Made by a program: the position numbers and the translations under genes. A stretch of 64,000 nt of DNA. Source: Eremomyces bilateralis CBS 781.70 (taxonomy: Eukaryota). Where the stretch lies: NCBI GenBank assembly GCA_010015585.1, contig ML975156.1; one strand, 5' to 3'. Positions 36,860 to 64,000 of the stretch are shown here, in pieces. Numbering within the stretch: the first letter of the stretch is position 1; every line of letters starts with the position of its first letter. The notes under the pieces are model-generated. The model was not told the DNA's origin and searched no databases. It was given only the letters and a program-made list of their open reading frames with translations.

Positions 36860-37172
36860 TTCGAGCTTCGTTTTAATTGGAAATGGATAGAAGGACTCGG
36901 AGCGTGCGTCGCGTAATATCAATGTGAATGAATGGAAATGTTCCTTCCTCAAAGACACAAGTATGAGGATGTCCAGAGGTTGGCGGAGGAAACAGTTGAA
37001 CAGTTGAAGCTCAGTTCCGAAAGAATGTTTAGCGCGAGCTGGAGCAAGAATGCGCAAGGTGTCAATAAGCGCGCGGAACACCCACCAATCATTTGGCTCT
37101 AAACATGGAGCAAGCGGCAGGTCTCACAATTCATCGATTTGAGGAACGATTCCAAATTTTTTGTTCAGATAG

Positions 37173-37178
37173 GAGTCA
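37173..37178 (-). promoter_or_regulatory. Gcn4/CpcA-type site (TGACTC) upstream of ARG4
   Basis: GAGTCA on + about 250 bp before the ARG4 ATG. Arginine genes are classic cross-pathway-control targets, but a single hexamer may be chance. Confidence 0.35.
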
Positions 37179-37422
37179 CCAGTAGAAGACCATCACCAGC
37201 ATTTGAATCCTGTTCTTAGATCAATCTCCCGCTCAAACTAAAATCGTCCCGATTTCTATACCATCAACCCATCTTCAGAGTATCTCGTTTCGTCACTCTA
37301 GTAGAGGTCTAGCTCATCCATCTTTAACAGCTCCAAGGGCTACCCATTGGACAATTAGCCATTTCGAACATTGGACGGCGTGAATATCCACCCGTACTTT
37401 ACCGTCCAATCCCTCAGAAAAA

Positions 37423-41366: not shown

Positions 41367-42038
41367 CTACAATGATCGCAAGTCGTGGGCCTCCCATGCA
41401 CCGGTTTTGTCAGCCACCAACAGGATGAGAGTATTCGCATCGATCTTCGGTTTAGACCTCGCACTTTGAATCATTGCGGAATAGTCCAGGTCCCAGTCCT
41501 TCCCTTGCATCAAATAACCAGTCTTTTCCCTCAAATACTGGTCAGATGTGTATGGGAGTACACGCGTCTTGAAGAAAGGGCTCTTGTCATAGCCATCGCC
41601 GAGGTCCTTGGCTCCCCAATTCCGAGATTTTCGAACAACAACCTCAAGCTCTTTGAACCCCGAAACCAGACGCCATGAGGCTGGATTATCCCATTGTCCA
41701 TGTTCACGCTCAAGGAAGAACGTATAAGGCCATCGCCAGATGTATTGCACGAGGAGCGAGTCAATCAGAAGCGATATAGCTCTCCAGAAAATAACCAACA
41801 TGAACGAGGAATCGGATTCGGTGGGCCATCCGCGTCCAAGGAAAATGGGCTGATAGAAAGGAAAAATATAGACAACACGCGCTATGAGCAAGGAAAGGAC
41901 TGCCGTATTGAGCAGAAGTGCCGCGCCAAAAATCAACTTCTTTTGAGGCACCGGGTGATGGTCGACGTGTAGCAGGTAGACTAGGCTCTTGTCTAATCTA
42001 TTCAGGATCGCATCTAGCTTGGATATTTCGCCCTCCAT
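41367..42038 (-). CDS. Hypothetical two-TM membrane protein
   Basis: 223-aa ATG-initiated ORF with two hydrophobic helices and a globular C-terminus (EVVVRKSRNW, KTGYLMQGKDWDLDY). Confidence 0.65.
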   Translation of the reverse strand: MEGEISKLDAILNRLDKSLVYLLHVDHHPVPQKKLIFGAALLLNTAVLSLLIARVVYIFPFYQPIFLGRGWPTESDSSFMLVIFWRAISLLIDSLLVQYIWRWPYTFFLEREHGQWDNPASWRLVSGFKELEVVVRKSRNWGAKDLGDGYDKSPFFKTRVLPYTSDQYLREKTGYLMQGKDWDLDYSAMIQSARSKPKIDANTLILLVADKTGAWEAHDLRSL

Positions 42039-42253
42039 ATTCTTCGGACGGCGTTGGGGGGATATCTGGTACTTTCAATGGCAATGACAGTTTCTGAATC
42101 ATGTACATCAGTCCAAAGCTGTGGAAAGGTCATTTGTTATGGTTTCGTATGAACTGTGTCAAGATGAAGAAAATTGATGTCCTAATTAGTTGTCTAGAAT
42201 GGTACTGTGAGAAAACAGCGGTTCCTGATGTCAGGTGATCTGTAGTACAGTTT

Positions 42254-42287
42254 CAACAACAACAACAACAACAACAACGACAACAAC
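42254..42287 (+). repeat. (CAA)n microsatellite
   Basis: About 11 CAA units with one CGA interruption. Confidence 0.9.
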
Positions 42288-42487
42288 GAATGCTTCTCAC
42301 GGAACCAGATGGATGAAGGGGCAGCTTCTGTCCAATAAGTATGGGGGTATCCCAAGTGCCATTATTTATACACAGCTGAAGTGCCTAAACTCTCGGTACC
42401 TAATCCAAATGATAGAAAATATGGAGTACCTTGCCAGCCATCGGCATCATGTCGGCACGGGCCTTGGTTAGATTCCGAGTCAGGATT

Positions 42488-42671
42488 TGTCGGAAATCCA
42501 CGGCTATTACTTAGTCATTGCACCTTGTAGATTACATAAGATTACATAAGCTTGGGTATATATACCCGTCAAGGTAAACTATCTACTTCTGACCGAATAC
42601 AAGCATCTCACTGCCTCTGAACAGGTATCCTATTGTTTCTGTGATTGATTGACACGCCAAAACGATCAACA
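42488..42671 (+). mobile_element. Solo LTR, family A, copy 1
   Basis: TGTCGG...ATCAACA, about 184 bp, near-identical direct copy at 48442-48624. Contains TATATA. Flanks GGATT/CGTTG, so no TSD. Confidence 0.8.
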
Positions 42672-42776
42672 CGTTGCCTTTATGCACCACCGGCCTATTT
42701 TCAAGGCAAACCTGAAGACCGCATCCTGACATTCAGTTCCTACAAATCACTCACAGTAGAAGCGGGAGCCCGCACT

Positions 42777-44168
42777 ATGAAGTCTCCAATCCCCGACTAT
42801 CTTCGGCAGGTGGTAGAAAATGCGCGCCCAGCCGACTCCGGCGAGGTTGCCGGCTACATCGAAGTTCTGGCCAAAGCGGATGCCTCCAAAATGGCTGTGG
42901 CACTCGCGACGGTAGATGGGAAGATGTACTCGGCTGGAGACGACGAAGTGGAATTTTCTATCCAATCCATTTCCAAAGCCTTTGTTTATGCACTGGCAAT
43001 TCAAGATACGGGGTTGCCACAGGTCTTGGAAAAAGTTGGCGTTGAACCATCTGGCGATGCGTTCAACAAACTGTCGCTGCAACGCAGCACCAATCGGCCT
43101 ATGAACCCCATGATCAATGCTGGTGCTATCGCCACGCACTCGCTGATCGTGGGACCGAATGCTACGGCGGAGCAAAGAGTTGATCGTATATTAAAGGCAT
43201 TGTCCCGACTGGCAGGCCGGCAGTTGCGAGTGGACGAAGCCGTCTACGAGGCCGAGCTCAAGGACGCCAACCGCAATATGGGTCTAGGTTACATGCTCAA
43301 AGCAGCAGGTATCATAGATGGTGATCCACAGGAAGCCGTGCGCGGCTATATCCGCCAATGCTCCATCAACGTCAACGTACGCGACCTGGCCATGATGGCA
43401 TCAACCCTGTGCAATGCCGGTGTACACCCGGTCTCCGGAGAGGGGATCATCCCGCACCAGAGCGTCCGCCAAGTCCTGTCCGTCATGACCACCTGTGGCA
43501 TGTACGATGCCGCTGGGGACTGGGTCTCCAACATTGGCATACCCGCAAAGAGTGGTGTAGCTGGCGGTATCATCGGCGCCCTTCCTGGCCAAGTTGGCAT
43601 TGCTGTCTTTTCACCCAAACTGGACGAACGCGGCAACAGTGTACGAGGCGTCATCATGTGCGAGAAGCTCTCATCCGACATGGGCCTGCACATGATGGAT
43701 ATCAGTCAGGTTGCTAGAGCCACCGTGCGTACTTCGGCCATGACCATTACGGGCTGTGCCGATCAACCCCACGAATACGTACAGGAGGTGCCTATCTTTG
43801 ATCTACGCGGCGCAGTCCGTTTCGCGGGCGCAGAACGTCTTACCCGTGCTATTGTGCATGAGTTCTCCTCCTCGGATACTGAGGACCCCGGCTCGGGACG
43901 CTATACGAACGCTCGCGCGGTTATTTTATCGTTCAGAGACGCCTATTCTCTCAGCGATGTTGCCCAGCGAATCATACTTGAGAACATTCGTCGCCTACGG
44001 GCGGCAGGTAGAAATCTGGTGGTGGTCGATCCTACCAGGGTCCTCAAGCTGCATGGGGATCATGTACCCGAAGACAATGCCCTGCGTGTGGTCAGAGACC
44101 TAGCTGAGGCACGTCGCTACATTGGGGGTACGGGCTGCCGGGCTGTATCTTATAGTGATAGTTGGTGA
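42777..44168 (+). CDS. glsA: Bacterial-type glutaminase (serine beta-lactamase-like fold) with C-terminal STAS-like domain, 463 aa, intronless
   Basis: Catalytic SxxK in FSIQSISK, plus GVEPSGDAFN, PMNPMINAGAI, TCGMYDAAG, PAKSGVAGGI and SPKLDERGNSVRG. STAS-like DLRGAVRFAGAE...LVVVDP. N-terminus MKSPIPDYL. Confidence 0.93.
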   Translation: MKSPIPDYLRQVVENARPADSGEVAGYIEVLAKADASKMAVALATVDGKMYSAGDDEVEFSIQSISKAFVYALAIQDTGLPQVLEKVGVEPSGDAFNKLSLQRSTNRPMNPMINAGAIATHSLIVGPNATAEQRVDRILKALSRLAGRQLRVDEAVYEAELKDANRNMGLGYMLKAAGIIDGDPQEAVRGYIRQCSINVNVRDLAMMASTLCNAGVHPVSGEGIIPHQSVRQVLSVMTTCGMYDAAGDWVSNIGIPAKSGVAGGIIGALPGQVGIAVFSPKLDERGNSVRGVIMCEKLSSDMGLHMMDISQVARATVRTSAMTITGCADQPHEYVQEVPIFDLRGAVRFAGAERLTRAIVHEFSSSDTEDPGSGRYTNARAVILSFRDAYSLSDVAQRIILENIRRLRAAGRNLVVVDPTRVLKLHGDHVPEDNALRVVRDLAEARRYIGGTGCRAVSYSDSW

Positions 44169-44215
44169 CCTAGTTTCAATCGGCTCTACACGAGTATCCC
44201 GGCGTAGATGCAAGG

Positions 44216-44358
44216 CTTGTTGGATATCAACCATCCTCTAGTTACCTCAGCAAGCTCAGGCTATTTGTGGTCGTGCCTGAGGCGACTAACCACACTATAC
44301 CTAATCGATAAATGCAGTTCACGAACAAATAGCCTGAGGATCGGGCAGGATCCTGTCA
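44216..44358 (+). repeat. Repeat family B, copy 1 (LTR-like TG...CA, internal hairpin)
   Basis: Inverted copy at 46368-46495; the first 46 bp are identical. Internal 14-bp inverted repeat at 44255-44268/44325-44338. Confidence 0.8.
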
Positions 44359-44364
44359 ATGGTA

Positions 44365-45911
44365 CGGAAGTTCCCTTCAAAAGTTTTTGCCCACGCTAAA
44401 TACGCCACTTTCTTGGCAGTCCCACAATACCAGCCGAGGAATCCTAAGTACATCGAATCTGTCCTTCATCGCTCCTATTTTGAATCTTATCAAGTCTCTC
44501 TCACGTTACGAAATGCCTTCAAATACTGACACCGCAACACAGGCGCTCATTGTTACTCTTAAGTCACCTATTGGGGGAAAAACAACAGCTGAAATCGCTG
44601 AAAAAACGGGTCTTCCAAAGCGTACAATTAATGCTATTTATGCCCGTGCAATTGAGCGGGGATTTGACCCTAATCATCTGCCTCTGCATATTAGAGACGA
44701 ATGGCTAGAAGATGCACCCCGTCCCGGCCGGCCCAAAAAACAGACGGAGGAGCTATCGAATACCGTTCTTACCAAAGTGCGTCAGGATCGATATGGAAGG
44801 GAGAAGACTTGCGCTGATATCGCGGGCGAGCTTTGTAGAGGCGGTTGGATTGTCTCCGAGTCTACCATCTGGAGAGTGCTCAAGAAAGCCGGCTTCAACA
44901 AGACGAAGCCGACGAGGAAGCCTGGATTGACGAAGAAGATGAAAGCTGAACGGTTGAAGTTTGCGAAAGAGCACGAGCATTGGACACTGGAAGATTGGAA
45001 AAACGTTATTTGGAGTGACGAGACAGCTATCGTATTACTCCACCGGAGAGGTAGTTATCGAGTATGGAGGACGAAAGACGAAGCGCTTGCAAAGACCTGT
45101 ATCCGGGAGCGTTGGAAAGGATATACAGAATTAATGTTCTGGGCCTGCTTTACGTATGATAAGAAAGGCCCTTGCCATTGCTGGATGCCAGAAACGAAAC
45201 AGGAGAAAATCGATGCGGAAAAGGTATTAGAAGAGATGAACGACTTGCTTGAACCTATTCGTCGAGACCAGTGGGAACTTGAGACCGGTATGAGGAGGAT
45301 GGGACTCCGGAATCCCTCTAGAAAGCCAATCTGGAAATGGACGCAGAAGACAGGGAAACTAGTTCGACAGAAAGGAGAAGGAATCGACTGGTATCGATAT
45401 CAGACAAAGATATTAATTCCGAAGCTATTTCCTTTCGTAGAGGAATGTCTGAAGGATCGGCCAGACACGATTGTTCAAGAGGATAAAGCTCCGTCGCACG
45501 CCCATCATGCACAGCAACGAGTATACGATTTGTACGGAGTACAGCGACTTCTTTGGTGCGGGAATTCCCCAGATCTAAATGCTATCGAGCCATGTTGGCC
45601 ATACATGAAGAGAGCGACGACAAGAAAAGGTGCTCCAAAGAATAGGCATGAAGCCATTAAAGCCTGGGAAGCTTGCTGGGAAGGACTCCCGCAGGAGAAG
45701 GTACAGGCTTGGATTGAGCGGATTCCACGACATATTCAACAGATAATTGAGCTAGAAGGAGGAAACGAGTATAAGGAAGGGAGAGACCATACGAGAAAGG
45801 ACTGAGATAACGCGAATGGGGAGGACTTAGCCATTAGTACATGTATCCTAATTAGGAATGGTTTTATTACGGGGTCTTGGCGTGGGCAAGAACTTTTGAA
45901 GGGGTCCTCCG
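44365..45911 (+). mobile_element. Complete Tc1/mariner DNA transposon, 1547 bp
   Basis: 35-bp TIRs (44365-44399 and 45877-45911, 5 mismatches) flanked by TA on both sides (44363-64, 45912-13). Confidence 0.93.
44513..45805 (+). CDS. Tc1-family DD34E transposase, uninterrupted (430 aa)
   Basis: N-terminal HTH, a PGRPKK linker, WSDET, and QEDKAPSH-(34 aa)-SPDLNAIE. Confidence 0.93.
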   Translation: MPSNTDTATQALIVTLKSPIGGKTTAEIAEKTGLPKRTINAIYARAIERGFDPNHLPLHIRDEWLEDAPRPGRPKKQTEELSNTVLTKVRQDRYGREKTCADIAGELCRGGWIVSESTIWRVLKKAGFNKTKPTRKPGLTKKMKAERLKFAKEHEHWTLEDWKNVIWSDETAIVLLHRRGSYRVWRTKDEALAKTCIRERWKGYTELMFWACFTYDKKGPCHCWMPETKQEKIDAEKVLEEMNDLLEPIRRDQWELETGMRRMGLRNPSRKPIWKWTQKTGKLVRQKGEGIDWYRYQTKILIPKLFPFVEECLKDRPDTIVQEDKAPSHAHHAQQRVYDLYGVQRLLWCGNSPDLNAIEPCWPYMKRATTRKGAPKNRHEAIKAWEACWEGLPQEKVQAWIERIPRHIQQIIELEGGNEYKEGRDHTRKD

Positions 45912-46367
45912 TACACACTGACTGTTCGATATTTTCATGTGTTTTTCACGATTTTGGAAACCTCACTTTTGCATATTCTTCAATAACAACATGAAGACTT
46001 ATTATAATTGCACTTAAATCCACTGGGCTGTGCAGCAAGGTATACTTTATCTAGAATTTGAATCTTTTCTACTCCCCATGCTTGTGTCTCGCAAAAAACG
46101 CTGATATGTAAGAAGCCAGACTGCGTCAGAATCGTTAACCAACCACCGCAGTTCAAGCACCTCTGGAGACGTTGGGTTCAGTTGTACGCTGCGCCGAGAG
46201 GAGGTTCGATCTGACATCGTCCAAATTCCACTGGGTTGTCAAGAAACGATAGAGGATTCGATTGAACATGTCAATTTTACTGTGTGATAGCTCGTTGTGG
46301 AGGAAAACGAGGTTGAAGTGATTAAATTGCTCTCATACAAACGATCTTAACTCAGGCCAAAAATCAA

Positions 46368-46495
46368 TGACAGGATCCTCAGGCTATTTGGTAGAGAACC
46401 ATACCAATTAGGTATAGCGCGGTTCGTTGCCTCAGGCACTACCACAATGGCCTGAGCTTGCTGAGGTAACTAGAGGATGGTTGATATCCAACAAG
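46368..46495 (-). repeat. Repeat family B, copy 2 (inverted)
   Basis: The reverse complement CTTGTTGGATATCAACCATCCTCTAGTTACCTCAGCAAGCTCAGGC...GGATCCTGTCA matches 44216-44358. Confidence 0.8.
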
Positions 46496-46507: not shown

Positions 46508-47878
46508 TCAAATGACCCGCTGAAGAACTCCTGCCTCCACAAGCCTCTGCTGAACTTCCAAGCTCATCAAACTCCGTACCCTCTCCAACGTCTGTCTAAG
46601 TCTCCAATACCTCCTATCCTCATCTTCCCCAGCACTCCCCCACTTAGCATGCAACAGTTCCTTGATAGCCTTTCCCTCGACATCGTTCGCTAGTTCCGTC
46701 AAGCAGGGTGTGCAGCACGAAAGATATTCCCCGTCCCAGAAGTAGAACTTTCCGCCCCATAAAGGGTAGAGATTATCCAGTGTGAGGAACTTGCGGCATT
46801 TGTAGCAAGGAAAGCAGGCGCCTGGGAAGCCCTCCGGAGCAAGTGCGGCGATGATGAGACGCTGGCGGTGACGCCTCTTGACAGTAGGAAGTAGAGAATG
46901 GCGGTCAAAGAAGTCGGATGGGGCAATGAGCTCTGGCAGGTGCCAGAAGTGCTTGCAGGCGCGCTTCAATGCCCACTGAGCTTCGACGCTGGCTTTGGCA
47001 TCATCATACAGAGCCGGCAAGTCCTCGATTGAGTCGGTGTTAAGATGCCGGATGATCTGGTGGTGAAGCTCTATGGGCAAAGACATAAGACAGGCTGATG
47101 CACAAGGGTATGTAACCCTCCTGATCTCGATCTCTGGGCTAGGTTGTTTAGAATCTAGTCCAGCTGTCTCCGCTTCATCCTTGATTATTTCCCGTCCCTT
47201 CTTGACCTCGACGTTCCGGAGCTGCAGGTCATCATCCTCTAGTTCATAATCCGATCCAAAATTGCCGATCGCAAACGCTTTCTTCAGAAACACATTGAAG
47301 AACCTGTAACGCTCGGTGCTGGTTTCATACTTGCGGTAGGCCTCGACAAGGCCGTCGAACGAGACGAGCGCAAACCCCTGACGGTAAGCCCAGATCTCCA
47401 CTTGCCGAAGCTCCTGTCCAACAGTTAGATATCAAACTCGAAAAGGTCGCACAGACGTATATGTTCGAGTTACAAAATCAATGAAGTAGGCCCACTCGCA
47501 TCCAAAACGGTCGAGAAAGCCGGTTTGGTCAGTCAGGTGCTTCAACTTCCCATCCAAGATTTCGAACAGCGCTGCGGTGCCCTGTGTTGTGTACAGTACG
47601 TCGCCCCAGCTGCTGTGACCGCGGGTTCTGCCGCCGAAGTTCTCGTAGTTGTACCCGTATCGCTCGTAGATTTCGACTAGCTCTGTTGCCACTGGAGATT
47701 GATGTACATCGACCCAGGTAAGCTTGTCAACAAGTTTGGCAAGGTGAGCAAGCTCTGCCAGGCTAGTTTGGGCGAGAAATTTGGCGACATCGAAGGCGAG
47801 GTCGTAAGAGTCATAGTGGTTATAAGAACCTTTGCGTTGGTCTTTCTTGCGAAAGCCGAGGATGCCGCTAGTTCCCAT
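46508..47878 (-). CDS. Hypothetical protein: MGTxG...YNHYDSY N-terminal domain fused to an F-box-like motif and Cys-rich tail
   Basis: ATG at 47878. A phase-0 intron at 47414-47473 (GTAACT...CTAAC...CAG) joins WAYFIDF to ELRQVEIW. F-box-like CLMSLPIELHHQIIRHL...LKRACKHF; CYKC...CCTPC. Confidence 0.65.
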
Positions 47879-48441: not shown

Positions 48442-48624
48442 TGTCGGAATCCGCGGCTATTACTTAGTCACCGCATCTTGTAGATTACATAAGATTACAT
48501 AAGCCTGGGTATATATACCCGTCAAGGTAAAATATGTACTTCTGACCGAATACAAGCATCTCACTGCCTCTGAATAGGTATCCTATTGTTTCCGTGATTG
48601 ATTGACACGCCAAAACGATCAACA
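48442..48624 (+). mobile_element. Solo LTR, family A, copy 2, followed by a partial related copy (48625-48658)
   Basis: Direct repeat of 42488-42671 with flanks CCAAT/TATAT. The next ~34 bp repeat the internal TATATACCC..CAAGGTAAACTATGTACTTCTG segment. Confidence 0.8.
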
Positions 48625-49316
48625 TATATACCCTCCAAGGTAAACTATGTACTTCTGTCGCAGACCAAGGTTTCATCTAACGGAGCCCGAGGCTACAAAC
48701 TGCATTATAAACTTGCCACGAATCTCATATATCTGGAGGGCCAGGGGACCAGGCATTGGCATAAGAACACGCAACTTGAACGCAACTTTCAGATACCTAA
48801 CTAGTTAGAACAACTTAGTTACACAACTTTAATGTCACACGGAGGTCACCTGACTTCAGTGTGTGTTGGGTCACGTGGTTTAGTGTTTGCTCGGAGATGT
48901 CTATCTCTATCTCTTCACGCTGTATTTTAGACAGGAGATGCGAACCCGCAAGCGGGTTTCGCTCAAAGAGAGCCTGGAGGAACGAAGCTAGAGTTCGCAG
49001 TCTTCGAATCTCCCTTAAAAGAGTACTCGAATTATATTCACAGAAGCATCATAAAAGGCTTATTTTCCATTGTTCTAGGTTGGTTTTAAGACATGATGCT
49101 ACGGCAGTCATATGATAGGCCAAAGAGTCAACATATTGTATACCATAAAGCAACAAAGCAAGGAATGAATTCGCTATTTTGGATGCGATGATCCTACATA
49201 GAATGATATAGTTTATATTCCCAATTCAATTGTTTTTAGAATAATAGCGACTTGCCTAGTCCGGTTCGAATTTCACTACGACGACGAATCCCTCGAATTT
49301 ATTCATAATACCTCTA

Positions 49317-51045: not shown

Positions 51046-51935
51046 ATTGAAAAAGAATCCATCGTTGTTGGATTTATTTGCGTTATCAAATTAGTCAGTC
51101 TCGATAATCAGAGGGAAGTCTCGACCATTAGAGTCCGTCTTAACCATCCGAGCCAGACTCAACGATCGGACTCAGTCAGGCGCAAGGTCAGAATCCGGCA
51201 GTGTCTGCGGACGCGAAGTGGACGCCGCGGAGCGTGTAGTTTTATAGTTCGTTCCAATCATATCACAGGGGCTAAAGCGGGGGGGCCGATCGCGATGTCG
51301 ACGAAGGCGTGTCAACGACGGCTGTGGTTGAGGGGGACAAATCACGTGAAACTCACGTGAAAATCATGTGATTTAAGGTTGGGTTGTGATTTTGTGTCTG
51401 TCCCTCGTGCGTCCACAAGGACCTTACGGAACTACGTTCCTCCAGGCATACATCCAATACATCGCTCTTCTCTCTTATACGTGATCTTTGCTCGATTGGA
51501 GTATTCTCCACAGATAAGGTTTGGGGGAAATCTACTTTAAAGTGACCCGTTAAGGATGTCTACGAAGTCATATAACTTGATGAAGCCGGTAGCTCCATTA
51601 GAAATAATTCGAAGATGATTCCCAGCTAATCAGAGATAGCTCGCCATAATTCACAAAATAATGTTGTACTGCTGCGCTATTGTGCTAAGTTACTGTAAGG
51701 AAATCGTGGCGTGGATGAGAGGGTGGTGACGTTATCCCCGTTCGTGCTGTTGATGGAAACTGTTCCAGACATCACAGTCACCCTATCCTGTAATCACGGC
51801 TCCTGTAGTGCTTCTCCTATGAGGATGTTTTTGACACGAACTAAACATAATGGAACCGCATTCGCACTAAACACATTAAGATGTCTTTATCAACCACCAC
51901 GCCCATCACAAGTATGTCCTAACCGAAAATAGATG

Positions 51936-52039
51936 CGCTGATATCGGGTGAGACCAGAAATGGATTCGGGCGGCAGTTCGCCGGGACTCTGAGGTGTCCG
52001 GAAACGGATACGCTGATATCGGGTGGGCCTAGAAATGGA
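51936..52039 (+). repeat. 29-bp direct repeat (51936-51964 and 52011-52039)
   Basis: CGCTGATATCGGGTGAGACCAGAAATGGA versus CGCTGATATCGGGTGGGCCTAGAAATGGA. Confidence 0.8.
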
Positions 52040-53526
52040 CTACTCGAGGGAATTGCAAGGGCCTATTGCTGGAACTTTTTAGATCCACTTCTGGCTCCCA
52101 AAAATGGGGAAGCTTGTTGGACGATGTTTTGGGACAAAATCTGTACCCGACAGCAAGCAAGGAAACACAGTCTTGTTACATGACTGATATTGGCCTGATC
52201 CGTGTTATTATGCGCCGCCTCTCTAAAGGTTACCACTTGCGCTTCGTCTTGGTCTCGTTGCCGCAGTCCTCCTCATTACCGTATAGCTATTGTCGCCGGT
52301 GCCATTACCATCAGAGGCGTCCGAACTCTCGCCTCTCTCTGAATCGAAGGGTTGCTGATGAAACCGTCGGCACAAGCGATTGCGCAGTACTGTTGCAACT
52401 CCAAGCAGGGCCAAGGTAATATCCTTTGCTGCTCCCCGGCAACGCAAGAAATTCGCCAACCAGACTCCCGCAAATACAGCTTCAACCTCGTCTGCTTCGA
52501 GCGGAACGAGAAGCTCTGTGTTCTTTCCAGTTTTAGCACCCGAATTTGGCAGGCAGCTCATTCACCATCGCCGCGTTTGCGAGCGATTTGAAAGAGACGG
52601 ACACTTGCTGCGTCATGCGCCATGATGGTGCCTACTACCGCTGTCAGCTCTACTATGAAGCAAGAAAATAAGATATGGCCATAGAGTGCCCCTAGCGGAG
52701 CCCTCGAAGTTGAAACCCCCGACAACCTCAATGATCACTCCAGTGCAGTGGACGGGATTCAGTCTGTTAGCTTGTCGTCCTCTGATCTAAAAGAGAAGAG
52801 CCGGGACGCTTTCATACCAAATCCATCAATCTCCAAACCCCGGCTGTTGCTCCGTTTGATTGCGTTGGTTGACAGCTCTGCTCGGCCAGCCTCTGGCCGT
52901 TGGTCCTCTACAACACGGTTCGTCGCTTCAAACGTATTTACCTAATTACAAGCCTGACTGATCGGCATTTCTATCTAGAAAGAGCCTAGTACCGGTCATG
53001 CTTCTATAGAATGCTTATCAAATCTCTAAACTCCGACAATTTCAGCGGTAAGTTGCCGGCTTCGTTTCAATGCCTCAGCGATGACGGGTACGGTCTCGGA
53101 AGTGACCATAGAAAAGGGCAGCAAGATGGTTTTCTAATAAATCTATGCCAGTTCCCGCCGCTCGCCGAAAGTGCATTTCCTATTTCGGAGTTACCAGCCT
53201 CTGTGTGTAAACGGATCACCTCACCGCTACTGCGCTCTCCCTTTCGCTAGGCGACGGAATTAGTTATTCCAGAGATTTGGGCCGATAATTCAAATCAATA
53301 GAACAAACGGAGCAACGTGCAATCCCGTTTTTCACTCTGCTTCCGTTCAACACTTTGGGAGGCTAATCATGAATCTAGCTTGTAACCCTATGATATAAAG
53401 GTCACCTGCTGGAAGGAAGACCAATTCTCATGGCGTAAATGGGAGCTTTCATGATTCTTAGCCGTTGACCTAATCGGCCTCGTTTTCCCTGATCAGTTTC
53501 CACATTTGGTTTTCAATCACCCCAAC

Positions 53527-55805
53527 ATGACGGGCCCAGGGTCAAAAATCAGCGGTATAGCCGATCCGGCGCTCCTGAACAAAGTTGACAAACTGTTTGC
53601 GAGCGGAGTTGGAGAATACGTATCTCTTCCGCAGATTGTAGCCGTCGGAGACCAGTCCAGCGGTAAAAGTTCTGTTCTTGAAGCATTAACCGGCCTGCCT
53701 TTCCCAAGGGACAGTGATCTCTGCACCCGGTTCGCGACGCAGATCAGGTTCTGCCGGGCACCAAAACCGGAGATTTCGATCTCCATCATTCCGGCCAGTG
53801 GTAGTAGCGGGGAGCACGTCGAAGCATGCACCGCCTGGTCAAAGTCCGGCCTCGAGGACCTGGACCCAGAAACATTCTCTAGCATCATGAGAGAGGTTCG
53901 CATATCCATCTGGGTTCTATCCACGGCTAACGTCTTTAGGCACATACAATTATGGGAATCGATGGCGGAATCACCTTCTCCGACGACGTGCTCCGCATTG
54001 AAATATACGGGCCGGATCAAGAGCACTTTTCGGTTGTTGATGTCCCCGGAATCTTCAGAAAGACCACCGAAGGGGTCACGACCAAAGCGGACAAGAAAAA
54101 GGTCGAAGCGATGGTCCGGCGATATATGGAGAATCCCCGGTCTATCATTCTGGCGGTCGTTCCTGCCAATGTGGACATTGCAACACAAGAGATCCTGACA
54201 ATGGCCGAGGAGGTGGATCCAGATGGACACAGGACACTTGGGGTCCTGACCAAGCCAGACTTGGTCGACAGAGGGGCTGAATCGGCGTTGATTTCCCTTG
54301 TTGAGGGCAAAAGGCACAAACTGACCTTAGGATGGTGCATTGTTCGCAATCCTGGACAAAGTCAGCTCGAGAATTCATCTGTCAACCGAGAAGCAATTGA
54401 GACGGCCTTCTTCCAGGACAACCTTCCTTGGAACACTCTTGAGAAGGACAGAGTTGGCATCAGTTCTTTGCGGCTTCGACTGCAGGAGATCCTCGCCAGT
54501 AACATCCGTCGCGAGTTTCCAAAGGTGCGTCGAGCCCCCGGCGTTCTGAAGCGATGCTAATCCTGCCGCAGGTCAAATATGAGATCCATAAGAAGCTCAA
54601 TGCCCGCAGAAAGCTTCTCGACAACCTGGGCGCAAAAAGAGAAACGGCGGACGAACAGCGTCAATACCTTTTGGGTATAAGTGAACGGTTCCAAAAATTC
54701 GTGATGTCCGCACTCTCCGCAGATTACGTGGGCGATGATTGGTTTGATAAGTTCCCAAACCTTCGTTTCGCTACTGCGGTTGTGAACCGCAATGAGGCTC
54801 TCGCGAAAATGCTGGCACAATACGGTCACTCGTATATTTTCGACAGAGAACGACGCGTCAGCGCAGAGGACGGAGATCAATGCGACAGCTCAGAGGACGG
54901 AGATGAAAATGACGAAGAAATCGAACGGCAAATTTCAGTCCGAGCCCAGGAGGACCCCGAGGGCTTGGACGAGCTGCCGCCCGGAGAGAACACGATAGTC
55001 AGCCAAACTCCTCGGGGTATTTTTAAGTGGCTATCAAGAGTCTACGAGACGTCGCGTGGTTTTGAGCTCGGTACCTTTGATGGTTCACTTCTTGCTATGA
55101 CGATGAAGACTCAGTCGTCTAAATGGGAGCCAATCGCCGTCGGTTACATCAATGATATCATCAGTATGGCGCATACGTTCGTCCGAGACTTATTGCATCT
55201 GGTCTGCCCGAATCTCCGCGTGTGGGAAGGTCTCATGTCGGTCCTCATGGATGAGCTCTTGGCGAAGTATAAAGCTGCGCTCGGCTATGTCCGTTTCCTC
55301 CTCCATGTCGAGAGGACCGGAACGCCAGCGACTCTGAATCACTACTTCGCCGATAACCTGGAAAAGTGGTAAGTCTATACATCCCGTTTTTGCATCAGCC
55401 GCTTATGATTTTACCAGCCGCCAAAAGCGCATTCGCGCCGATCTGCAAGAGAAAACCTTCGCCGATTGCAGCCACGGCGAAGTTGTCCGCCTCGAAGACA
55501 TTGTGCAGAACCATCACACGTCTAATGTCGAGCATGTCGTCCAAGAGATCCATGACATCCTCGAATCCTACTATAAAGTCGCTCGTAAGCGCTTCGCGGA
55601 TAATCTGTGCATGCAAGCAGCGGACTACCACCTCGTGACAGGGCCTTGCTCCCCGCTGAGATTCTTTGGCACGGCTTTCGTGAGCAACCTGTCCGAAGAA
55701 CAATTGATGGATATCGCCGGGGAAGATGCCGCCTCACGAACGAAGCGTGCTGCTCTGACCAAGGAGATTGCAGATCTTGAAGCCGGAAAGAAAATCGTAT
55801 CCTAA
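53527..55805 (+). CDS. Mx-like dynamin-family GTPase, ~712 aa, intact
   Basis: G1 GDQSSGKS, G2 CTRFAT, G3 DVPG, G4 TKPD and a GED-like C-terminus (YYKVARKRFADN). Introns 53896-53939, 54525-54571 and 55369-55417 restore one frame. Confidence 0.9.
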
Positions 55806-56225
55806 TTTTGGACTGCATGTACTGTAGCAAGGCAGTTCGGTGTTTGAGTACTCCGTAAGTTAGCATTAGTTATCCCTTCTTTTGGTAGTTTTTGCTTGGA
55901 TGGACCGCCTGTTGTGAATGGCGCATATTTAGCCAATCATTTGTAGCAGACTATCTTCCCCGCTCTCCGCCAACCGGTCACGACTTCCTTGCTCCTGCAC
56001 AGTTTGTATTGACATGTTCCGGTGCAATGTCAGTTCTAGTTGAACCAAACCTACCACGCTCTGGTTTAGTACACCATAACGGGCGCCTTGCAGATTAAAG
56101 ATAAAGGAGTGGCATCCAATGGCAGCTATCCACGTTACTCATTACCCTTATATTTCCAATTTATACAAGACATTTAGCTGGCAATCCTTTCGCAGTGCTT
56201 CTCACGACCATTTCCTTCATTTGCC

Positions 56226-57558
56226 ATGTCTAGTCAACCCGCAATATCACCAAAGTTTCTAGAACGCTGGAAAGATGTTCATAATGCTGTCACCACATTC
56301 TCCCAAGTTGCAAAGTCGTTAAATGAGGTCGAAGAGGTTATGATCGAGAGGAGAACACTGGGTGATCAAGTAAAGCGGCTGGAGACGGAAAGGTCCGAGA
56401 GTGCTGGGGAGGTCGCCTCTCTTAAAACAACACATACCGTCCTGATCCAGCAATTTGAGTTAAGGTACAATAGCTGGGAGCTTGAACGCAAGGAATTACG
56501 AGAGCAATACGAAGACGGGAAGCGAAAAGGCCAGCAAGAGCTTGATGATATTAAAAGAGAATTAGCTGCAAGGGAAGGCCAGCTTCGAACCGCGCAGTCT
56601 AGTATAGTAGAGAAGGATGTAAAAATTCTAGGTTTGGAGAGGAGCCTACATGAGGCACTGAACGAACTACGAGATATTAGAGGCGCTATCGGGTTAATAG
56701 ATCTGGACGAGAGTTTGTCAGTATCGGACTCCCACGATATGCGCATTTACTAACGTTAGGGGTTGGCAGTTCCGGCCAACTTTCGGAGATATCGAGCACG
56801 CTGCGGGCGATAGCGCAAGATTTTTTCTTTACAACCCTTCCAGAGAAAAATATGGTACGCGAACCCTTTATGTGATATCTTTAACTAACCTCGTCAAGGA
56901 TACACTGTATCGCCAGCTTCGACAATCTCGTTTCATTGCTCGTCCATTCGTGATACCAATATCTAACAGCATTCCTTCTCAGCACCTCAGGATGGTCGCC
57001 GCACAAGCTCTTATTGCCCGGCAACTTTCAAACAAGATCTTTCGCACTATCCACGTTTCAGAGTCTCCCACACCCCGAGACTTGGACAAGATGTCGACCG
57101 AGTACCCCCTACGTGGCACGGTGTTTCGTGCTATGCACGCGACTGCATTTAATGAACAAGAGAAAGAGCTGATAGACAACGATATTGAAGAAATCACAGA
57201 CAATCTCATTAGAAGTACTCAACCTCTTGTTTCTGACAGCGAAAACCTTAAAATGAGGCTTCGAAAGCTTTTCAAGGATGCGTTATGGCTTTGGCAATAC
57301 GCGAGAAGAAACATAGAGAGAGTCTATTGCTCTATAGACAGTGTAAACTGGAACCATTGCGAAGAGTATCAGAGTCCCACCATTACCAAAGAACGCGACT
57401 TACCAAAGGTGCGGACTTCTGATATAGTTTTGTTCCCTTGCATACATTTGCGGTCAGGTCGCAAGCCTTTCCATCCTGGCTATGTTCTTCGGTCTGACAA
57501 TCCTCTTCTGATGCTAGGTGCGATAGAGGCTACGGAGCAGGATTCTCATGTATCGTGA
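56226..57558 (+). CDS. Coiled-coil protein of unknown function, ~411 aa, intact
   Basis: About 150-aa heptad-rich N-terminus. Introns 56717-56769 and 56855-56898 give a continuous frame into a helical C-domain (IPISNSIPSQHLRMVAAQALIARQL...VLFPCI...HPGYVL). Confidence 0.7.
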
Positions 57559-57774
57559 TCTCCTTTGGGCACACAGGGTAAGGGAAAGTTAAGACTAGCT
57601 TCGAGGGCATATTCAAGGGACAATGCAGCTTTGGCCAGACATCTATTATGTATTTATCTACTATTCTAGGCTCTCCGTTTCAGGGTAACAGTATGTAAAC
57701 GTCGGCTCCGAGATACACTTTAAGAGCCATGCAGCGCAGGTTCACAATATATCCTTCTGGATATCACTGTCTCA

Positions 57775-57962
57775 TGTCATGGGCCCAAACCACGAAGGAT
57801 TTGGTAAGCTGGTAACGCTGTTGAATTGCTAAAGAGAGAAGGAGAAGATCTCTCTTACTGCGATCTGCTATTTACATCTGTGGGCAAACGGTCTACCCAT
57901 CCCTTCTGCCTTAGGCTGCAAGGCCACAACACACAGACTGGGCGAAGCCCAAGACTGTCACA
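57775..57962 (+). mobile_element. Solo LTR, family C, copy 1, with 5-bp TSD
   Basis: TGTCA...GTCACA, 188 bp, flanked on both sides by TCTCA (57770-57774, 57963-57967). Confidence 0.93.
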
Positions 57963-59058
57963 TCTCATCCACATATGTCAAAGAAAATGAGACTTGCACG
58001 TCCGCGTTTAGGTCGCACGACAATCAAGTCTTGCCGCTTCTAGATGATTTATAACTGTTGCATCAACTACTCCAGATCTTAACTTGAAGGGCAGTTGACG
58101 AGGATAAGAATCGGATAATTAAACCTTGGGGGACTGGCCGTCCAGGGGCAGCGGGGTAAAGGATGTGTTCCGAAATCCATTAACCTAACAACCAGTTTCC
58201 TGGATTCTGAAAATGGTAATTTACAGACTCCTATTTATTTCATTTATTTCTTACATCCACCCTAGCCATGCGGTCGCGTCCTACAGTGACGAGCAGAGTC
58301 GGTTTCCAGTTTTACGCTTCAATATGATCTCGACGTACTGTCGCATTACGCGGGGGTGATGATTAAGCAAGTTCGCTGCTTAAGCTCAGTTACCGTACTG
58401 TATAGACACAACGCATGTTGATATTGACGATTCCCATTGTATCCCCGAGTGTGTTTTCGCTAGCTAAACCGTTGAAAATAGGTGTGATGGATCAGAGGTC
58501 CGCAGACCTGGATGCCTTGTGGCCTTGTGGCCCGTTTGCTCTGTAAACACCAGAACAGATAAACGCCTCGCACACCTTAGATAGATTCCTCCTTCATAGC
58601 AACAATTCAATGTTTGCCTCACGATTGGAGATTCCCGACAGTGAGACTCTTACAATAGGCAAATACATAGGAGAAGAGTGAGCAGTCCTAAATAGGCTTA
58701 GCCTAGGGGTAATGGGCAGAGAAAGGAATATTGCGTGGTAGTAGAAACGAACAGGGACATCCTGCGACACATACAGTCCTCCTGGCAAGGGATACGCATC
58801 CTATTTCGTATTAGTGCATTGCAGGGTGAGACTGCGCCATCCGCTGCGCCATGAGCTCTTTTGCACCTTCACACCAGTCCTTGTGTGGACGATGCCAACA
58901 GGTAATAGAACCAATAATGTGGAAGCTGCGTTTTCCCTTTTTCATCACACTATCCCCCCACGTAGTACCAGTAATTATATCCTTTCGCTGAAGATATTCT
59001 TGAGAGAACTCAATCCCCCTAGCGACTTACGTTCGGTTCTTTAAAACCTACCCTCGCT

Positions 59059-61095
59059 ATGCGGCAGCTTAGCAGTGGCCCCAGCGGCAGCTTCCGCCTG
59101 ACCCACTTCCCCAGCGACAGTATTCCCAGCTATGCAATCCTTTCGCACACCTGGGACGCGGATGACCAGGAGGTTACATTCCAAGATATTACGAATACCG
59201 TGGGAACCAGCAAGACAGGCTATAGAAAGATCGAGTTTTGTAAGGAGCAAGCAAAGAAACATGGGCTTCAGTATTTCTGGGTGGACAGCTGCTGCATCGA
59301 CAAGTCAAGTAGCGCCGAGCTCACAGAGGCTCTTAACTCGATGTTTCGCTGGTACGGGGATGCAGCAAAATGCTATGTGTATCTCTCAGACGTTTCAACA
59401 GGAAAGCACACCCGGTCTTCTGAGCTCCCATGGGAACCGGCGTTTAGGCGGAGTCGATGGTTCACCAGAGGCTGGACACTACAGGAGCTTCTTGCTCCGC
59501 GATCAGTCGAGTTTTTCTCCCGAGATGGCAAGCGACTTGGTAACAAAAAGTCGTTAGAACAGCAAATTCACGAGATTACTGGGATTGCAATTGGCGCACT
59601 TTAAGGACATCTGTCTCAATTCAGCAACGATGAGCGAATGTCATGGGCAAAAGAGCGAGAGACCAAGAGGGAAGAGGATCAAGCATATTGCCTCATGGGA
59701 ATCTTTGGCGTCTACCTACCGGTCATCTATGGCGAGGGGAAAAGAAACGCACTCCAACGGCTTCGAAAAGAGATCGAAGAGGGTTCAGACGATACGCGAG
59801 GTAATTCAACCGCAAGTTTTTATGGTTAGCGGACTAATCTGCAAAGTGAAATGGAACGACAAGGAACTAAACTGTATGCAAGCCCTGCGTAATTCAGCTT
59901 CCGACTACGAGCAGTTCAAGGACCGGAACTCTAGCCGACTTAGAGATACCTGCCAGTGGGTTCTCCGTCATGACCATTTCCGAAACTGGAAAGACAGCAG
60001 CTCCTCAAGTCTTCTTTGGATATCTGCGGATCCTGGATGCGGAAAATCAGTTTTCTCTAAATCTCTTCTCGACGAAGATTTCAAAAACACGGACGCTGGC
60101 ACAACTTGCTACTTCTTTTTCAAAGATGACAATGACGTACAGAAAAGTGCAGTTGCAGCGCTTGCGGCACTACTCCACCAGCTCTTTCGGCAGAAACCAA
60201 CACTTATCAAACACGCTATGCCGGATTTCGCCGCTAATGGACATCAACTTTCTCAATCATTTCATATACTCTGGAGTATTCTAATAAAGACGGTGGCTGA
60301 CCGGAATGCCGGGGAAGTCTTTTGCGTCTTGGATGCCCTCGACGAATGCGCAGAAGGAGGGCAGTATCAGATTATTAACGCTCTCAGTTCATTCTACCAG
60401 CAAGCAAGCTCCGGAAACAATGCATCTCGACTCAAAATATGTGTCACTAGTCGTCCTTACCCAGGCATTGAACGGCGCTTCACCGATCTTACTTCTAACT
60501 TTCCTACGATTCGGCTGCACGGCGAGCAAGAATCAGATATAATCAGTCATGAGATTGATCTAGTCATCAAATGGAGAGTATCTCAACTCGGATCTGAGCT
60601 CAAACTCAATAATTCAGAACAGTCAAATCTCGAAACAGAGCTGTTGAGCATGAGCCACCGAACATACCTCTGGTCAACACTCATTTTCGATATCATTCGC
60701 AAAATGATTCGACCGACAAGTCGGAAACTAAAGGCAGTTATTAGTGGCCTTCCGTCCACAGTTGATGAAGCATACGAAGCGATTCTTACAAAAATCGAGG
60801 AGGACGATCGACCACAAGCACGGAAATTGCTCTCTATCGTTGTTGGAGCAACCAGGCCTCTTACACTAACAGAAATGAACATCGCTCTAGCTATAGAAGA
60901 CCGCCATCGCTCCTTCGACGACCTTGAACCTGACCTTGACGATGAAGCGAGGTTTGAAGCGTCGGTGAGACACCTCTGCGGGCTCTTTGTGACTGTAGTG
61001 GATCGAAAGGTCTATCTGATCCATCAAACTGCAAAAGAATTCCTTCTCGCGAAGAGTGAGGCCGCTGCTATTGGATATAAATATTCTCTTGTTCT
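59059..61095 (+). pseudogene. HET-NACHT NLR-like gene with a premature stop, truncated by an LTR
   Basis: HET domain (YAILSHTW, FWVDSCCIDK, SRWFTRGWTLQELLAP). In-frame TAA at 59602-59604; intron 59801-59846. NACHT Walker A ADPGCGKS and Walker B VLDALDE; the winged-helix IHQTAKEFL is followed by the LTR at 61096. Confidence 0.88.
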
Positions 61096-61283
61096 TGTCA
61101 AGGGCCCAAACCACGAAGGATTTGGTAAGCTGGTAACGCTGTTGAATTGCTAAAGAGAGAAGGAGAAGGTCTCTCTCACTGCGATCTGCTATTTACATCT
61201 GTGGGCAAACGGTCTACCCATCCCTTCTGCCTTAGGCCGCAAGGCCACAACACACAGACTGGGCAAAGCCCAAGACTGTCACA
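61096..61283 (+). mobile_element. Solo LTR, family C, copy 2 (no TSD)
   Basis: Near-identical to 57775-57962; flanks GTTCT/CAAAG. Confidence 0.9.
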
Positions 61284-61812
61284 CAAAGTAGAGTTTGTAG
61301 AGGTTGACTTTGATGCGGATCGATTTGATACGGGAAATTCCAGCAGTCCTCGATATCCGTTACTGAATATATGATCGAGAGTTAGTTTCGTCCTGTGGTT
61401 CGGCGCCATATTAGAGGACTGCGTTAAAATGTGACTGCACGCGATCGTGAATGTCCCAGCGCCTCTGCGTGGATCACGAGACTTGATGAGATTAGTGAGA
61501 TCAATCCCGACTAGAACGCCTCGTCACTTGTGATTCGACGCCATTAATCGGCAACAGCCGTAGTTCTGTCCAACCGACCAGCCAGACGCATGCATTAGCG
61601 CCTGGTCAGGTCGCAAAGCGCAAGGCTGAGGTCGCGGAGAACAAGCTGCGAAGTGACCGGAAAACGAACGCAGCCTTATAATGGCCTTTCTCTGCCGTTA
61701 CGGTCGTCGTCCTTGTCCGACTCAACTCTAGCTTCTTCGTTGACCTAGGCGAACCGCACAACCTGTCATTCTACCCGCCCATCTGCTGGCCTAGCGCGCT
61801 TCCCTCCACACC

Positions 61813-63038
61813 ATGGCATCCCGCAACTCTCTCGACAGCCCCGACTCCTATGCGGTCGCCTGGATCGCAGCTCTTCCCATCGAGCGGGCCGCTGCAGAAG
61901 CAATGTTTGACGAGGAACATGCTCCTCCAACTGGCTTCACTAGGCACCAAATCGACGCGAACCGTTATACATGGGGTCGTATGGGAGAGCACAACATCGT
62001 TATCGTCTCCCTTGCCGCCGGAGACTATGGAACCACCTCGGCTGCGTCCACGGCCTCGAGCCTGCTTGCCTCTCTGCCATCCATCCGTGTTGGTCTTCTG
62101 GTCGGCATAGGCGGTGGCATCGCACGACCGGACGATGACCGCGATATCCGGCTCGGCGACATTGTCGTGAGCCAGCCCGATGGGACTGCAGGCGGCGTCT
62201 GCCAGTACGACTTGATTAAGGCAAAGCCTGGTAACAGGCGTGAGCGCAAAGGCTTCCTCGGACGGCCTCCGACGGTTCTCCTCAACGCGCTTGCCAGCAT
62301 CCAGGCCGATCACGAGCGGAAAGACTCCAAAGTTCCCTACTTCCTTCAACAGATGTTAGAGAAATACCCGAAGATGGGCAAGAGATCCAAGACAAGTCCT
62401 GGCTATACTCACCAGGGCTTCGACAAAGACCGCCTCTTCAAAGCTTCTAGTGGCCACGTCTCCGGGTCGGACTGTCGGGGCTGCGACGCGGCTGGCGACG
62501 TTCAACGCGATCCTCGAGACACCACCGACCCCGATATCCACTACGGGACTATCGTATCCGGCAACACGCTGGTCAAAGACGCCGCTGCGCGCGATCGGAT
62601 TATTGCCGACGTCGGCGAGGATTGCATCTGCTTTGAGATGGAAGCAGCCGGCCTGATGAACCACTTTCCCTGTCTTGTGATCCGAGGGATCTGCGACTAC
62701 GCCGATTCCCACAAGAACGATCGATGGCAACGTTACGCCTCGGCCACCGCCGCTGCGTATACTAAGGAGCTCCTGGCGTACGTGCCGGTCGCGGAGGTCC
62801 AGGAGACCAAGAAAGCGCTGGAAATGCTTCAATCAGGTTAGTAATCCATATCCTCCGACAGGGCCCTGGCCTGGCGAATAAATAAGGCGGAGTAATAATA
62901 TCACGTCGAACATATTCTGACCTGCCTTAGTTGAATAAAAAATCGATAGTATGCAGTAGACCATAGGTGTAGCGAAAATAGCCACTGATTCTATCCAGGC
63001 CGACCTTCGTACCGAGAAGATCGAGCGCTGGCTTCGCC
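61813..63038 (+). pseudogene. PNP_UDP (nucleoside phosphorylase) NLR-like gene: intact effector exon, broken downstream
   Basis: YAVAWIAALPIE, LLVGIGGG, DIRLGDIVVS, CFEMEAAGLMN and IRGICDYADSHKNDRWQRYA. Intron 62837-62930. Exon 2 has TAA (62936) and TAG (62957) and ends ...TEKIERWLR at an LTR. Confidence 0.88.
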
Positions 63039-63568
63039 TGTTATGGTTCCAGGCCTGTGGCCTGTCTCCTGAATGATAGTCACGTGACTAAGTCAACTGT
63101 CGAAGTCTTGGACATTGCGCACGCGTCGTAGATAGCTCTTCTTCTTTAGCTTTGCAATAAATGAAAGTGGTTCTCGTAACTTCTGCGATCAAACCGTCTC
63201 ATCTAGGTCCAAATATGCTATTGAGCCGCTAGGTTCGTCCTTAAGGGTTGCCCTTTATAAGGAAGACGAACTCTAGTTCCTTGCTGGCGCCAGCGTTCTA
63301 TTTATAATTCGGCCAACAGGCTGTCACTTCGTTATTATTGGCGCGGCGCGTGTAGCATACTTCTGTTAACAAGATCTACTCGGCGCTGGGAGTCTTGGTT
63401 ACATTAATCCTGGAGCCCAGGTTGTTAAGGCAATTGGGAACGGAGTTTTACGATGGACCGAGGTGTCTTTGATCTAGTTATAGAAACTGGAGAGCTATAA
63501 GTCAATAAGCGGAGCATGTTTGATATTGAAGCTTGGAAGTTCAGAATCTTGAAGTAATGGCTAGTTCC
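63039..63568 (+). mobile_element. LTR-like sequence (63039-63201, family D) plus degraded adjacent sequence
   Basis: Abrupt junction with the NLR exon; TGTTATGG...CCGTCTCA with AATAAA; TA-rich sequence without ORF follows. It is single-copy here, so the boundaries are inferred. Confidence 0.5.
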
Positions 63569-63756
63569 TGTCGTGGGCCCAAACCACGAAGGATTTGGTC
63601 AGCTGGTAACGCTGTTGAATTGCTAAAGAGAGAAGGAGAAGGTCTCTCTCACTGCGATCTGCTATTTACATCTGTGGGCAAACGGTCTACCCATCCCTTC
63701 TGCCTTAGGCCGCAAGGCCACAACACACAGACTGGGCGAAGCCCAAGACTGTCACA
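63569..63756 (+). mobile_element. Solo LTR, family C, copy 3 (no TSD)
   Basis: Near-identical to copies 1 and 2; flanks GTTCC/CAGGC. Confidence 0.9.
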
Positions 63757-64000
63757 CAGGCAGATATTTACAGCGACGGTCGCGCCAACCACCGACTATG
63801 GTGCTCCGATCTGGTTCCCAGGCTCCGCAGGGACAGTAGCCCGTCATATCGAGAGGGCCACCAAACTGGGGGCGAGCGCAATCACGGCCATCTTCAGGTC
63901 CGCGGCGTACGACGTGGTAACTGGCGAGGCCGGGATCGAATCAGTCCAGGATAGGCTCTACGAACTAACGAGGAAACACTGGATTAAGATGCATACGAAA
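63757..64000 (+). mobile_element. Non-LTR retrotransposon (Tad1-like LINE) ORF2 fragment, post-RT region
   Basis: The open frame from 63758 reads RQIFTATVAPTTDYGAPIW...KLGASAITAIFRS...EAGIESV..R...HWIKMHT, resembling the region C-terminal to the RT of fungal LINEs. It is not in the ORF track because it has no start codon. Confidence 0.7.

Follow-up and report, generated by a model that had tools for sequence, protein, structure and literature searches.

Koji moulds possess four types of glutaminase, of which type IV, Gls, is homologous to bacterial glutaminase, is intracellular and is the only salt-tolerant one, according to section 4.10 of PMC8399179. The fungal types GtaA, GahA/B and GgtA catalyze the same reaction as Gls but are separate from it by homology, as classified in that section (PMC8399179). 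The window analyzed here, 64,000 nucleotides of Eremomyces bilateralis CBS 781.70 (contig ML975156.1; C8:930026-994025 of the host genome G000, the contig ending 3.5 kb past the window), carries a gene of the Gls type, gls (42777..44168, + strand). Its product and the Aspergillus oryzae enzyme, for which Masuo et al. 2004 and 2005 are reportedly the primary papers, are 75% identical over their full length, fall in one subclade, share the two-domain build and lack a signal peptide; indeed, a protein labelled 'K-3-type glutaminase [Aspergillus oryzae]' (P0428, in the cluster of match P0013) is identical to Gls at 347/463 positions without gaps. Unlike its A. oryzae counterpart, the copy in the window belongs to a Dothideomycete and is situated behind a solo LTR, where an accessory block of transposons begins or ends. 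Among characterized bacterial enzymes, M. luteus Mglu (PDB 3AGD, 3IF5 and 3IH8) is the top PDB match of Gls both by sequence and by fold (Z 43) and has the same N-terminus, but it is ~45% identical and lacks the ~40-aa C-terminal tail of Gls; furthermore, its domain orientation differs from that of the Gls model (whole-chain rmsd 11-12 Å), which may be model error. Similarly, Gls passed the cut-off of the actinobacterial GlsA-STAS family (NCBIfam PRK00971.1-4, residues 1-442; 566.2 bits versus 557), and its N-terminus reads MKSPIPDYL; the resemblance to actinobacterial enzymes in start and architecture, pointed out in an earlier sequence-only reading, was borne out. The glutaminases of Luteimonas and other Lysobacterales (L002-L011) are 59-66% identical to Gls, of equal length and provided with the tail, and are either sister to the fungal copies as a whole or the group from which these arose; unlike window gls, those of Luteimonas, as yet uncharacterized, are patchy in their genus (10/89) and have a high GC3. 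E. coli YbaS, B. subtilis YbgJ and human GLS agree with Gls in their active site and in the serine beta-lactamase-like fold of the catalytic part, but are 34-40% identical to it and lack a STAS-like tail.

The open reading frame of gls consists of 463 codons, without stop or intron. The Glutaminase catalytic domain (PF04960; residues 22-306, 42840..43694, + strand) was recognized with 382.1 bits versus a cut-off of 27, and TIGR03814 with 341 versus 255. The full active-site set, consisting of Y27, Q63, the SxxK motif (S64-I-S-K67, encoded at 42966-42977), N114, E160, N167, Y191, Y243 and K258-S-G-V261, was present when aligned with YbaS and human GLS, and the catalytic residues are invariant or almost so across a 17-row family alignment. 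The catalytic domain of the structure model superposed on YbaS, Geobacillus and human GLS (1U60, 2PBY and 3VOY; VIA, Z 40-41) with an rmsd of 1.4-2.0 Å over ~280-295 residues. Judged from family membership and the complete active site, the gene product is predicted to be a serine-dependent glutaminase of the M. luteus K-3 type. The Pfam scan of Gls gave no match to GtaA, GahA/B or GgtA; together with the separate homology type given for GtaA in PMC8399179, this agrees with the earlier statement that the family is unrelated to the usual secreted fungal enzyme.

A putative second, STAS-like domain occupies residues ~336-423 (43782..44045, + strand). Pfam STAS matched this region below its cut-off (15.2 bits versus 22.6, E 0.019), and STAS matches at E up to 1 occurred in 10 of 17 family members. 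The C-terminal part of Gls aligns to that of M. luteus Mglu, and the Gls structure model displays a STAS-like alpha/beta order there. Taken together, these three lines make 'STAS-like', the term used in the sequence-only reading, a fair label. The isolated domain was modelled with a pLDDT of 44, too poor for structure search, and an ESM match of 0.82 is a lead only. The ~40-aa tail beyond the domain was common to the fungal and Luteimonas members only of the 17-row alignment.

No signal peptide was evident by inspection, residues 5-16 corresponding to helix 1 of the catalytic domain and not to a hydrophobic leader, which points to intracellular conversion of glutamine into glutamate and ammonium. 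Gls would thus catalyze L-Gln + H2O -> L-Glu + NH4+ in the cytosol. Ser64 of the SxxK motif presumably attacks the amide, assisted by Lys67 and two tyrosines, these roles being taken from the family; a gamma-glutamyl acyl-enzyme would be formed on Ser64, ammonia would depart and water would then free glutamate. By analogy with AoGls, the enzyme is probably salt-tolerant. Acid resistance based on a glutaminase would suggest an adjacent antiporter gene. No antiporter or other transporter gene adjoins gls, and the role in acid tolerance proposed earlier is unsupported.

The gene is part of the fungal nuclear genome. A search of the host genome with the Gls protein retrieved gls itself as sole match. 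Among public-run contigs over 36000-46200, gls was covered at a depth of 212 versus 246-253 for single-copy flanks in DNA run X1, and of 163 versus 172 in DNA run X2, both runs being from one sample that is possibly the assembly source, hence not independent of the assembly. In X1, a single contig starts within the upstream LTR, 25 nt from its border, crosses gls and reaches a downstream MITE, linking the gene to its fungal flanks. A fourth run, X4, which bears the label of another organism, gave no matching contig, which speaks neither for nor against the gene. Run X3, from another sample and study, was recognized as RNA solely on account of spliced joints in neighbouring genes, of which it skips the GT..AG and CT..AC introns; it yielded one unspliced gls contig (42643-44245) without sequence differences at a depth of 52, the depth being ~3 over a silent stretch (39410-40091) and 0 at 42138-42478. 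Host-level DNA depth, the contig anchored in LTR and MITE and the X3 contig indicate that gls is nuclear, present in single copy and transcribed; it is a real fungal gene with an intact frame. In this respect, the earlier description of a complete, intronless SxxK glutaminase of 463 aa, contiguous with fungal LTRs, a Tc1 element and intron-bearing genes, was accurate: reading frame, motif, Pfam domain and unspliced RNA agree, the elements were annotated, and the introns of the neighbours were seen as spliced joints. Furthermore, RIP indices computed on gls gave no sign of RIP, and dN of 0.14-0.21 with dS from 1.8 to saturated, as compared with four metagenome homologues, shows that gls is under purifying selection.

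Left of ~42 kb, the window contains ordinary intron-bearing genes, among which those for argininosuccinate lyase and UTP21; the last gene of this single-copy region (41367..42038, - strand) is divergent from gls and transcribed. Right of ~42 kb, transposons and dynamin, HET-NACHT and PNP_UDP genes occur. The boundary is marked by a solo Ty1/Copia LTR (TG...CA, 184 nt; 42488..42671, + strand), a second one of the same family, 95% identical, being found at 48442..48624 (+ strand). On contig C43, frames for Gag, integrase, reverse transcriptase and RNase H, the order of the domains being judged by eye, are enclosed by two identical LTRs of this family, which have a 5-bp duplication in common. Among 22 full-length LTR copies read, eight stand alone, each within a 5-bp duplication of its own. 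Those of the window, flanked by GGATT/CGTTG and CCAAT/TATAT, lack such a duplication, indicating that they are recombination junctions or mis-joins. The absent duplication could indeed reflect a mis-join, as the public-run contigs break at the LTR and none covers all of its 184 nt, so that the join between left and right flank is that of the assembly alone. Two exact patterns for a reciprocal partner of the junction were not found in the host genome, and a matching flank was absent from all 30 LTR loci examined. An LTR-flanked captured gene or a re-integrated circle was considered too and is unsupported, the two window LTRs sharing no duplication.

The LTR is also a candidate promoter of gls. 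It is separated from the ATG by 105 nt, and its TATA box (TATATATA, 42557-42564) lies ~215 nt upstream of that codon. Recombination at the Copia LTR would have left the unique 105-nt leader (42672..42776, + strand), which has an A at -3 of the ATG, GGAG at 42765-42768 and a 15-codon, out-of-frame uORF (42682-42729) that could damp translation of gls. The X3 contigs cover the junction between LTR and gls and not the one left of the LTR (one study), a weak hint that transcription starts in the LTR. That its TATA box drives gls is an evenly balanced proposition.

From 51513 onward, the window is 85-99% colinear with stretches of contig C23 (707-9100 and 29087 onward), the first of them being 258 nt away from the gene of a DUF3435 captain that precedes it. 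This indicates that the window holds a captain-less Starship-like block (51513..64000, + strand; colinear in parts) with dynamin, HET-NACHT and PNP_UDP genes, all typical Starship cargo. As gls ends at 44168, it lies ~7 kb outside the matching block, on the captain side.

The fungal relatives of Gls are numerous. Its best 119 non-self matches were 64-80% identical, and all 56 species-named ones belonged to the Pezizomycotina (Sordariomycetes, Eurotiomycetes and Dothideomycetes). The fungal homologues, announced as sporadic, hence form a broad clade that includes the characterized A. oryzae K-3-type Gls. In a 50%-cluster library, one full-length fungal-group representative reached 70% and one fragment 63%, the others at most 58%. 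Bacterial genomes were covered by two scans of 80 loci each (143 distinct proteins), the second being a sample. Among the matches listed, ten Luteimonas/Lysobacterales proteins led (59-66%, full length, with the C-terminal tail), followed by Actinobacteria and Acinetobacter with at most 54% over ~420 residues and one partial match of 59% over 318 aa. Hence, among these matches, the nearest bacteria are not actinobacterial, as first supposed, but belong to the Gammaproteobacteria, the Actinobacteria being one step further out. With a Luteimonas-type query, Luteimonas and close kin were retrieved at 70-79%, one protein and Lomentospora at 68%, and then the fungi already retrieved with Gls. The gene is patchily distributed, with 10 carriers among 89 genomes of the genus Luteimonas and three among 250 of the family; the Luteimonas copies (L002-L011) sit in varying neighbourhoods.

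Phylogenetic trees were calculated with 84 rows, with 62 rows (quick search) and with 37 rows (LG+F+G4, 1000 bootstraps), the rows being picked for spread over classes and not at random. In all three, the fungi formed one clade (SH-aLRT 97-99.5; 99.5/91 in the 37-row tree), joined to Luteimonas at a support of 100, within a mostly actinobacterial group. Approximately unbiased (AU) tests on the 37 rows (LG+F+G4, shortened constrained searches) did not reject two topologies with Luteimonas nested in the fungi (p 0.46 and 0.15); the direction of transfer is therefore likely into fungi, and no firmer than that. These relationships would be explained by a single ancient transfer between the Pezizomycotina and a bacterium resembling Luteimonas, more likely into the fungi, the Luteimonas-like gene itself falling among actinobacterial GlsA-STAS genes. 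In 36 metagenome homologue loci, many of them near-duplicates, the gene was uninterrupted in 25, contained an intron (GT..AG, after codon 63) in six and was partial, frameshifted or unchecked in five. Lack of introns is thus the norm in this family and not the sign of capture for which it had been taken. Similarly, GGAG does lie 8 nt before the ATG of gls, as reported, but it occurs at this spacing before 46 of the 1154 ATGs of the window (4%) and in one of 31 homologue loci, a chance-level frequency that argues against a Shine-Dalgarno remnant. A likeness of the leader to the ribosome-binding site of L002 was dropped, as L190, the closest fungal relative with DNA, lacks it. The host-like GC3, the introns gained in six homologue loci and the chance-level GGAG indicate that the bacterium-fungus transfer was old.

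Within the fungi, the gene does not follow the species tree. UTP21 places the host in the Dothideomycetes on a long branch (next matches 55-57%). In a trimmed alignment, Gls shared 82% of its residues with the homologue in Fusarium nematophilum, 78% with that in Phialemonium and 75-77% with those in Aspergillus section Flavi, versus 69-70% with other Dothideomycetes. Accordingly, it grouped with F. nematophilum, Geosmithia and section Flavi, with 97/96 in the 37-row tree and SH-aLRT 99 in both the 84-row and the 62-row trees. AU tests rejected Gls forced with the Dothideomycetes (p 4e-29) or with Pleosporales plus Cladosporium/Aureobasidium (p 0.0015) and, by a narrow margin (p 0.048), Gls attached basally to the main clade of fungi, whereas Dothideomycete monophyly without the window copy was not rejected (p 0.285). 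Monophyly of the classes across the whole family was rejected too (p 4e-81), so that the outcome which the sequence-only reading had named as its own refutation, a broad fungal clade in line with the species tree, is half realized: the clade is broad but not congruent with that tree. The fungal sampling, drawn from best-match lists, is biased. Cross-class identities of 87% (Cladosporium-Verticillium) and 89% (Fonsecaea-A. carlsbadensis) were found, versus 76% within a class (Cladosporium-Cercospora). In the trees, Verticillium stood beside Cladosporium (P0036/P0039), Aspergillus carlsbadensis inside the Chaetothyriales (P0406), and the Microascales formed the deepest fungal branch (P0397). The best nucleotide identity among the homologue loci examined was 73-76%; as these loci include no close DNA donor, a transfer, if there was one, must be old and cannot be dated from them. 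In tblastx comparisons of 18 homologue loci with the window, only generic HET-domain matches were shared (L178, L182 and L194), and synteny with these loci was rejected for that reason.

For the window copy, transfer from another fungus is somewhat favoured by these relationships, old paralogy with losses keeping a substantial share, and transfer would be the simpler reading. The explanation as a whole, namely a K-3-type cytosolic glutaminase that arose from an old transfer between a bacterium and the Pezizomycotina, belongs to a lineage crossing classes and may be expressed from an LTR, can be put forward with considerable confidence. It has to be weighed against several others. That bacterial contamination or a chimeric assembly produced gls draws on the contig breaks at the LTR, and its probability is practically negligible in view of the host-level depth in two DNA runs, the contig that extends into fungal elements on both sides (LTR and MITE), the identical RNA sequence from another sample and the fungal nature of the nearest relatives. 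A recent capture from an actinobacterium by this lineage, with GGAG as Shine-Dalgarno remnant, would fit the absence of introns, the Mglu-like architecture, the position among transposons and a GC content of 56% versus 46-52% in the surroundings. However, all 119 best non-self matches outscore every bacterium found, the named ones all being fungi; the Actinobacteria stay behind Luteimonas among the matches listed; the GC3 of gls (0.59) conforms to that of host genes (0.46-0.67) and is remote from that of Luteimonas genes (0.82-0.90); GGAG occurs at chance level; and six homologue loci have gained an intron. Such a capture is very improbable. Indeed, the exclusively Pezizomycotina origin of the named matches, synonymous sites near or at saturation and the chance-level GGAG all indicate that the gene is not a fresh bacterial acquisition, so that the horizontal acquisition proposed before holds for the bacterial origin of the family and for the presence of gls in fungal DNA, and not for a recent event. 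Alternatively, Luteimonas may have obtained the gene from a fungus and the fungi theirs from Actinobacteria. The few Luteimonas and family genomes with the gene, the fungal matches, Lomentospora first, that follow Luteimonas itself, the nested topology left unrejected by the AU test and the lack of introns in most fungal copies are in favour of this. Yet, in every maximum-likelihood tree the fungi held together as a clade, Luteimonas falling outside it or being paraphyletic, and the Luteimonas copies, mutually 69-75% identical, are as divergent as those of the fungal classes and have a GC content that fits their loci; this route is unlikely.

The main competitor of fungus-to-fungus transfer is purely vertical descent, in which an early duplication gave two subfamilies, the Flavi-type copy was kept in this lineage and transposons piled up around it. 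Synonymous sites are saturated versus the homologues tested, the host lineage is long-branched (UTP21 57% to its next match) and no neighbouring gene beyond generic HET domains is shared with homologue loci, all of which such descent would accommodate. It is harder to reconcile with the identity of 82% between the window copy and F. nematophilum and the other cross-class values, which exceed the Cladosporium-Cercospora one, with the rejected class monophyly and with the position of gls on the margin of an accessory block that has been rearranged; vertical descent is possible, with an appreciable but lesser probability. A further possibility is that gls travelled with a Starship. The block at 51.5-64 kb is colinear with C23 directly behind a captain, DUF3435 has 46 matches over many contigs of the host genome, and the dynamin, HET-NACHT and PNP_UDP genes are what such elements usually carry. 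However, none of these DUF3435 matches is on C8, whereas Starships possess a captain; gls is outside the matching part, C23 has no gls copy, and no publication linking glutaminase with fungal Starship cargo was found. Transport of gls as Starship cargo is hence not supported by its position and is rather improbable. A more far-reaching scenario, in which gls is a shuttling gene that crossed between Luteimonas and fungi, moved repeatedly between fungal classes, arrived in a Starship-derived region and there came under a Copia LTR promoter, is doubtful, if conceivable.

The enzyme type is known and characterized, fungal homologues already being labelled glutaminases in databases, and as it has been studied for soy-sauce brewing, gls itself is no surprise. 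The history of the fungal K-3-type family, with its Luteimonas kinship and class-crossing tree, may be new. The literature search, in which subscription papers were thinly covered, did not turn up any work on how the fungal K-3 type arose, on Luteimonas as sister or on such a tree. The transfer of a fungal K-3-type gene may well be on record in the largest survey, PMC11708051. In the part of its supplement file 3 considered, 'glutaminase' occurs in at least 12 rows, whose best match was in every case one Streptomyces (46-57%), and 'Luteimonas' is absent from the rows listed. The word 'glutaminase' was absent from the supplements of PMC4320630 and PMC4626719, and nothing pertinent was found in the literature on STAS/Mglu and on solo-LTR promoters. 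If confirmed, gls would be a clear-cut example of a gene from central nitrogen metabolism that went from bacterium to fungus and on to another fungus, with a promoter supplied by a transposon. In addition, the variants in fungi and Luteimonas, over 100 in number, represent an untapped set of candidate salt-tolerant glutaminases.

Downstream of gls, an inverted-repeat element (44216..46495) begins 47 nt past the stop codon and has a multicopy MITE core (44242-46470) with ~15 copies in the host genome. Its inverted repeat (44216-44241 and 46471-46495) extends 26 nt beyond the usual MITE ends, as in only one of the other matches listed (C20:160852), and no target-site duplication was seen. A Tc1/mariner element (44365..45911, + strand) is nested in the MITE, with TA on both sides, an ORF of 430 aa (44513-45805) and a 99% identical copy on C7; in X3 RNA, Tc1-family transcripts skip 62 nt (GT..AG, 44776-44839), and the frame of the window copy is open without this. 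Two single-copy ORFs of 192 aa and 148 aa (46508..47878, - strand) lie within the LTR-bracketed block of gls, the former without a Pfam domain. The latter (47432-47878, - strand) weakly resembles phage hypothetical proteins (PHROG 30528, E 2e-7; ESM Atlas 0.94, clusters mostly viral) and may, on this similarity, be another gene in the block that is related to prokaryotes or phages. A degenerate pogo/Fot1-type DDE_1 transposon occupies 49300-51450 and has a 1.55-kb, 100% identical match on C2. In the Starship-like block, the HET-NACHT gene (58653-61095) contains a stop at 59602-59604 between its HET and NACHT parts and is cut by a solo repeat at ~61095; copies are found at the start of C49 (99.5% identical) and on C27, C19, C15 and C1 (90-91%). 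A second LTR-like repeat of ~190 nt occurs at 57775-57963, 61095-61285 and 63569-63757, and has more than 25 near-identical copies in the host genome.
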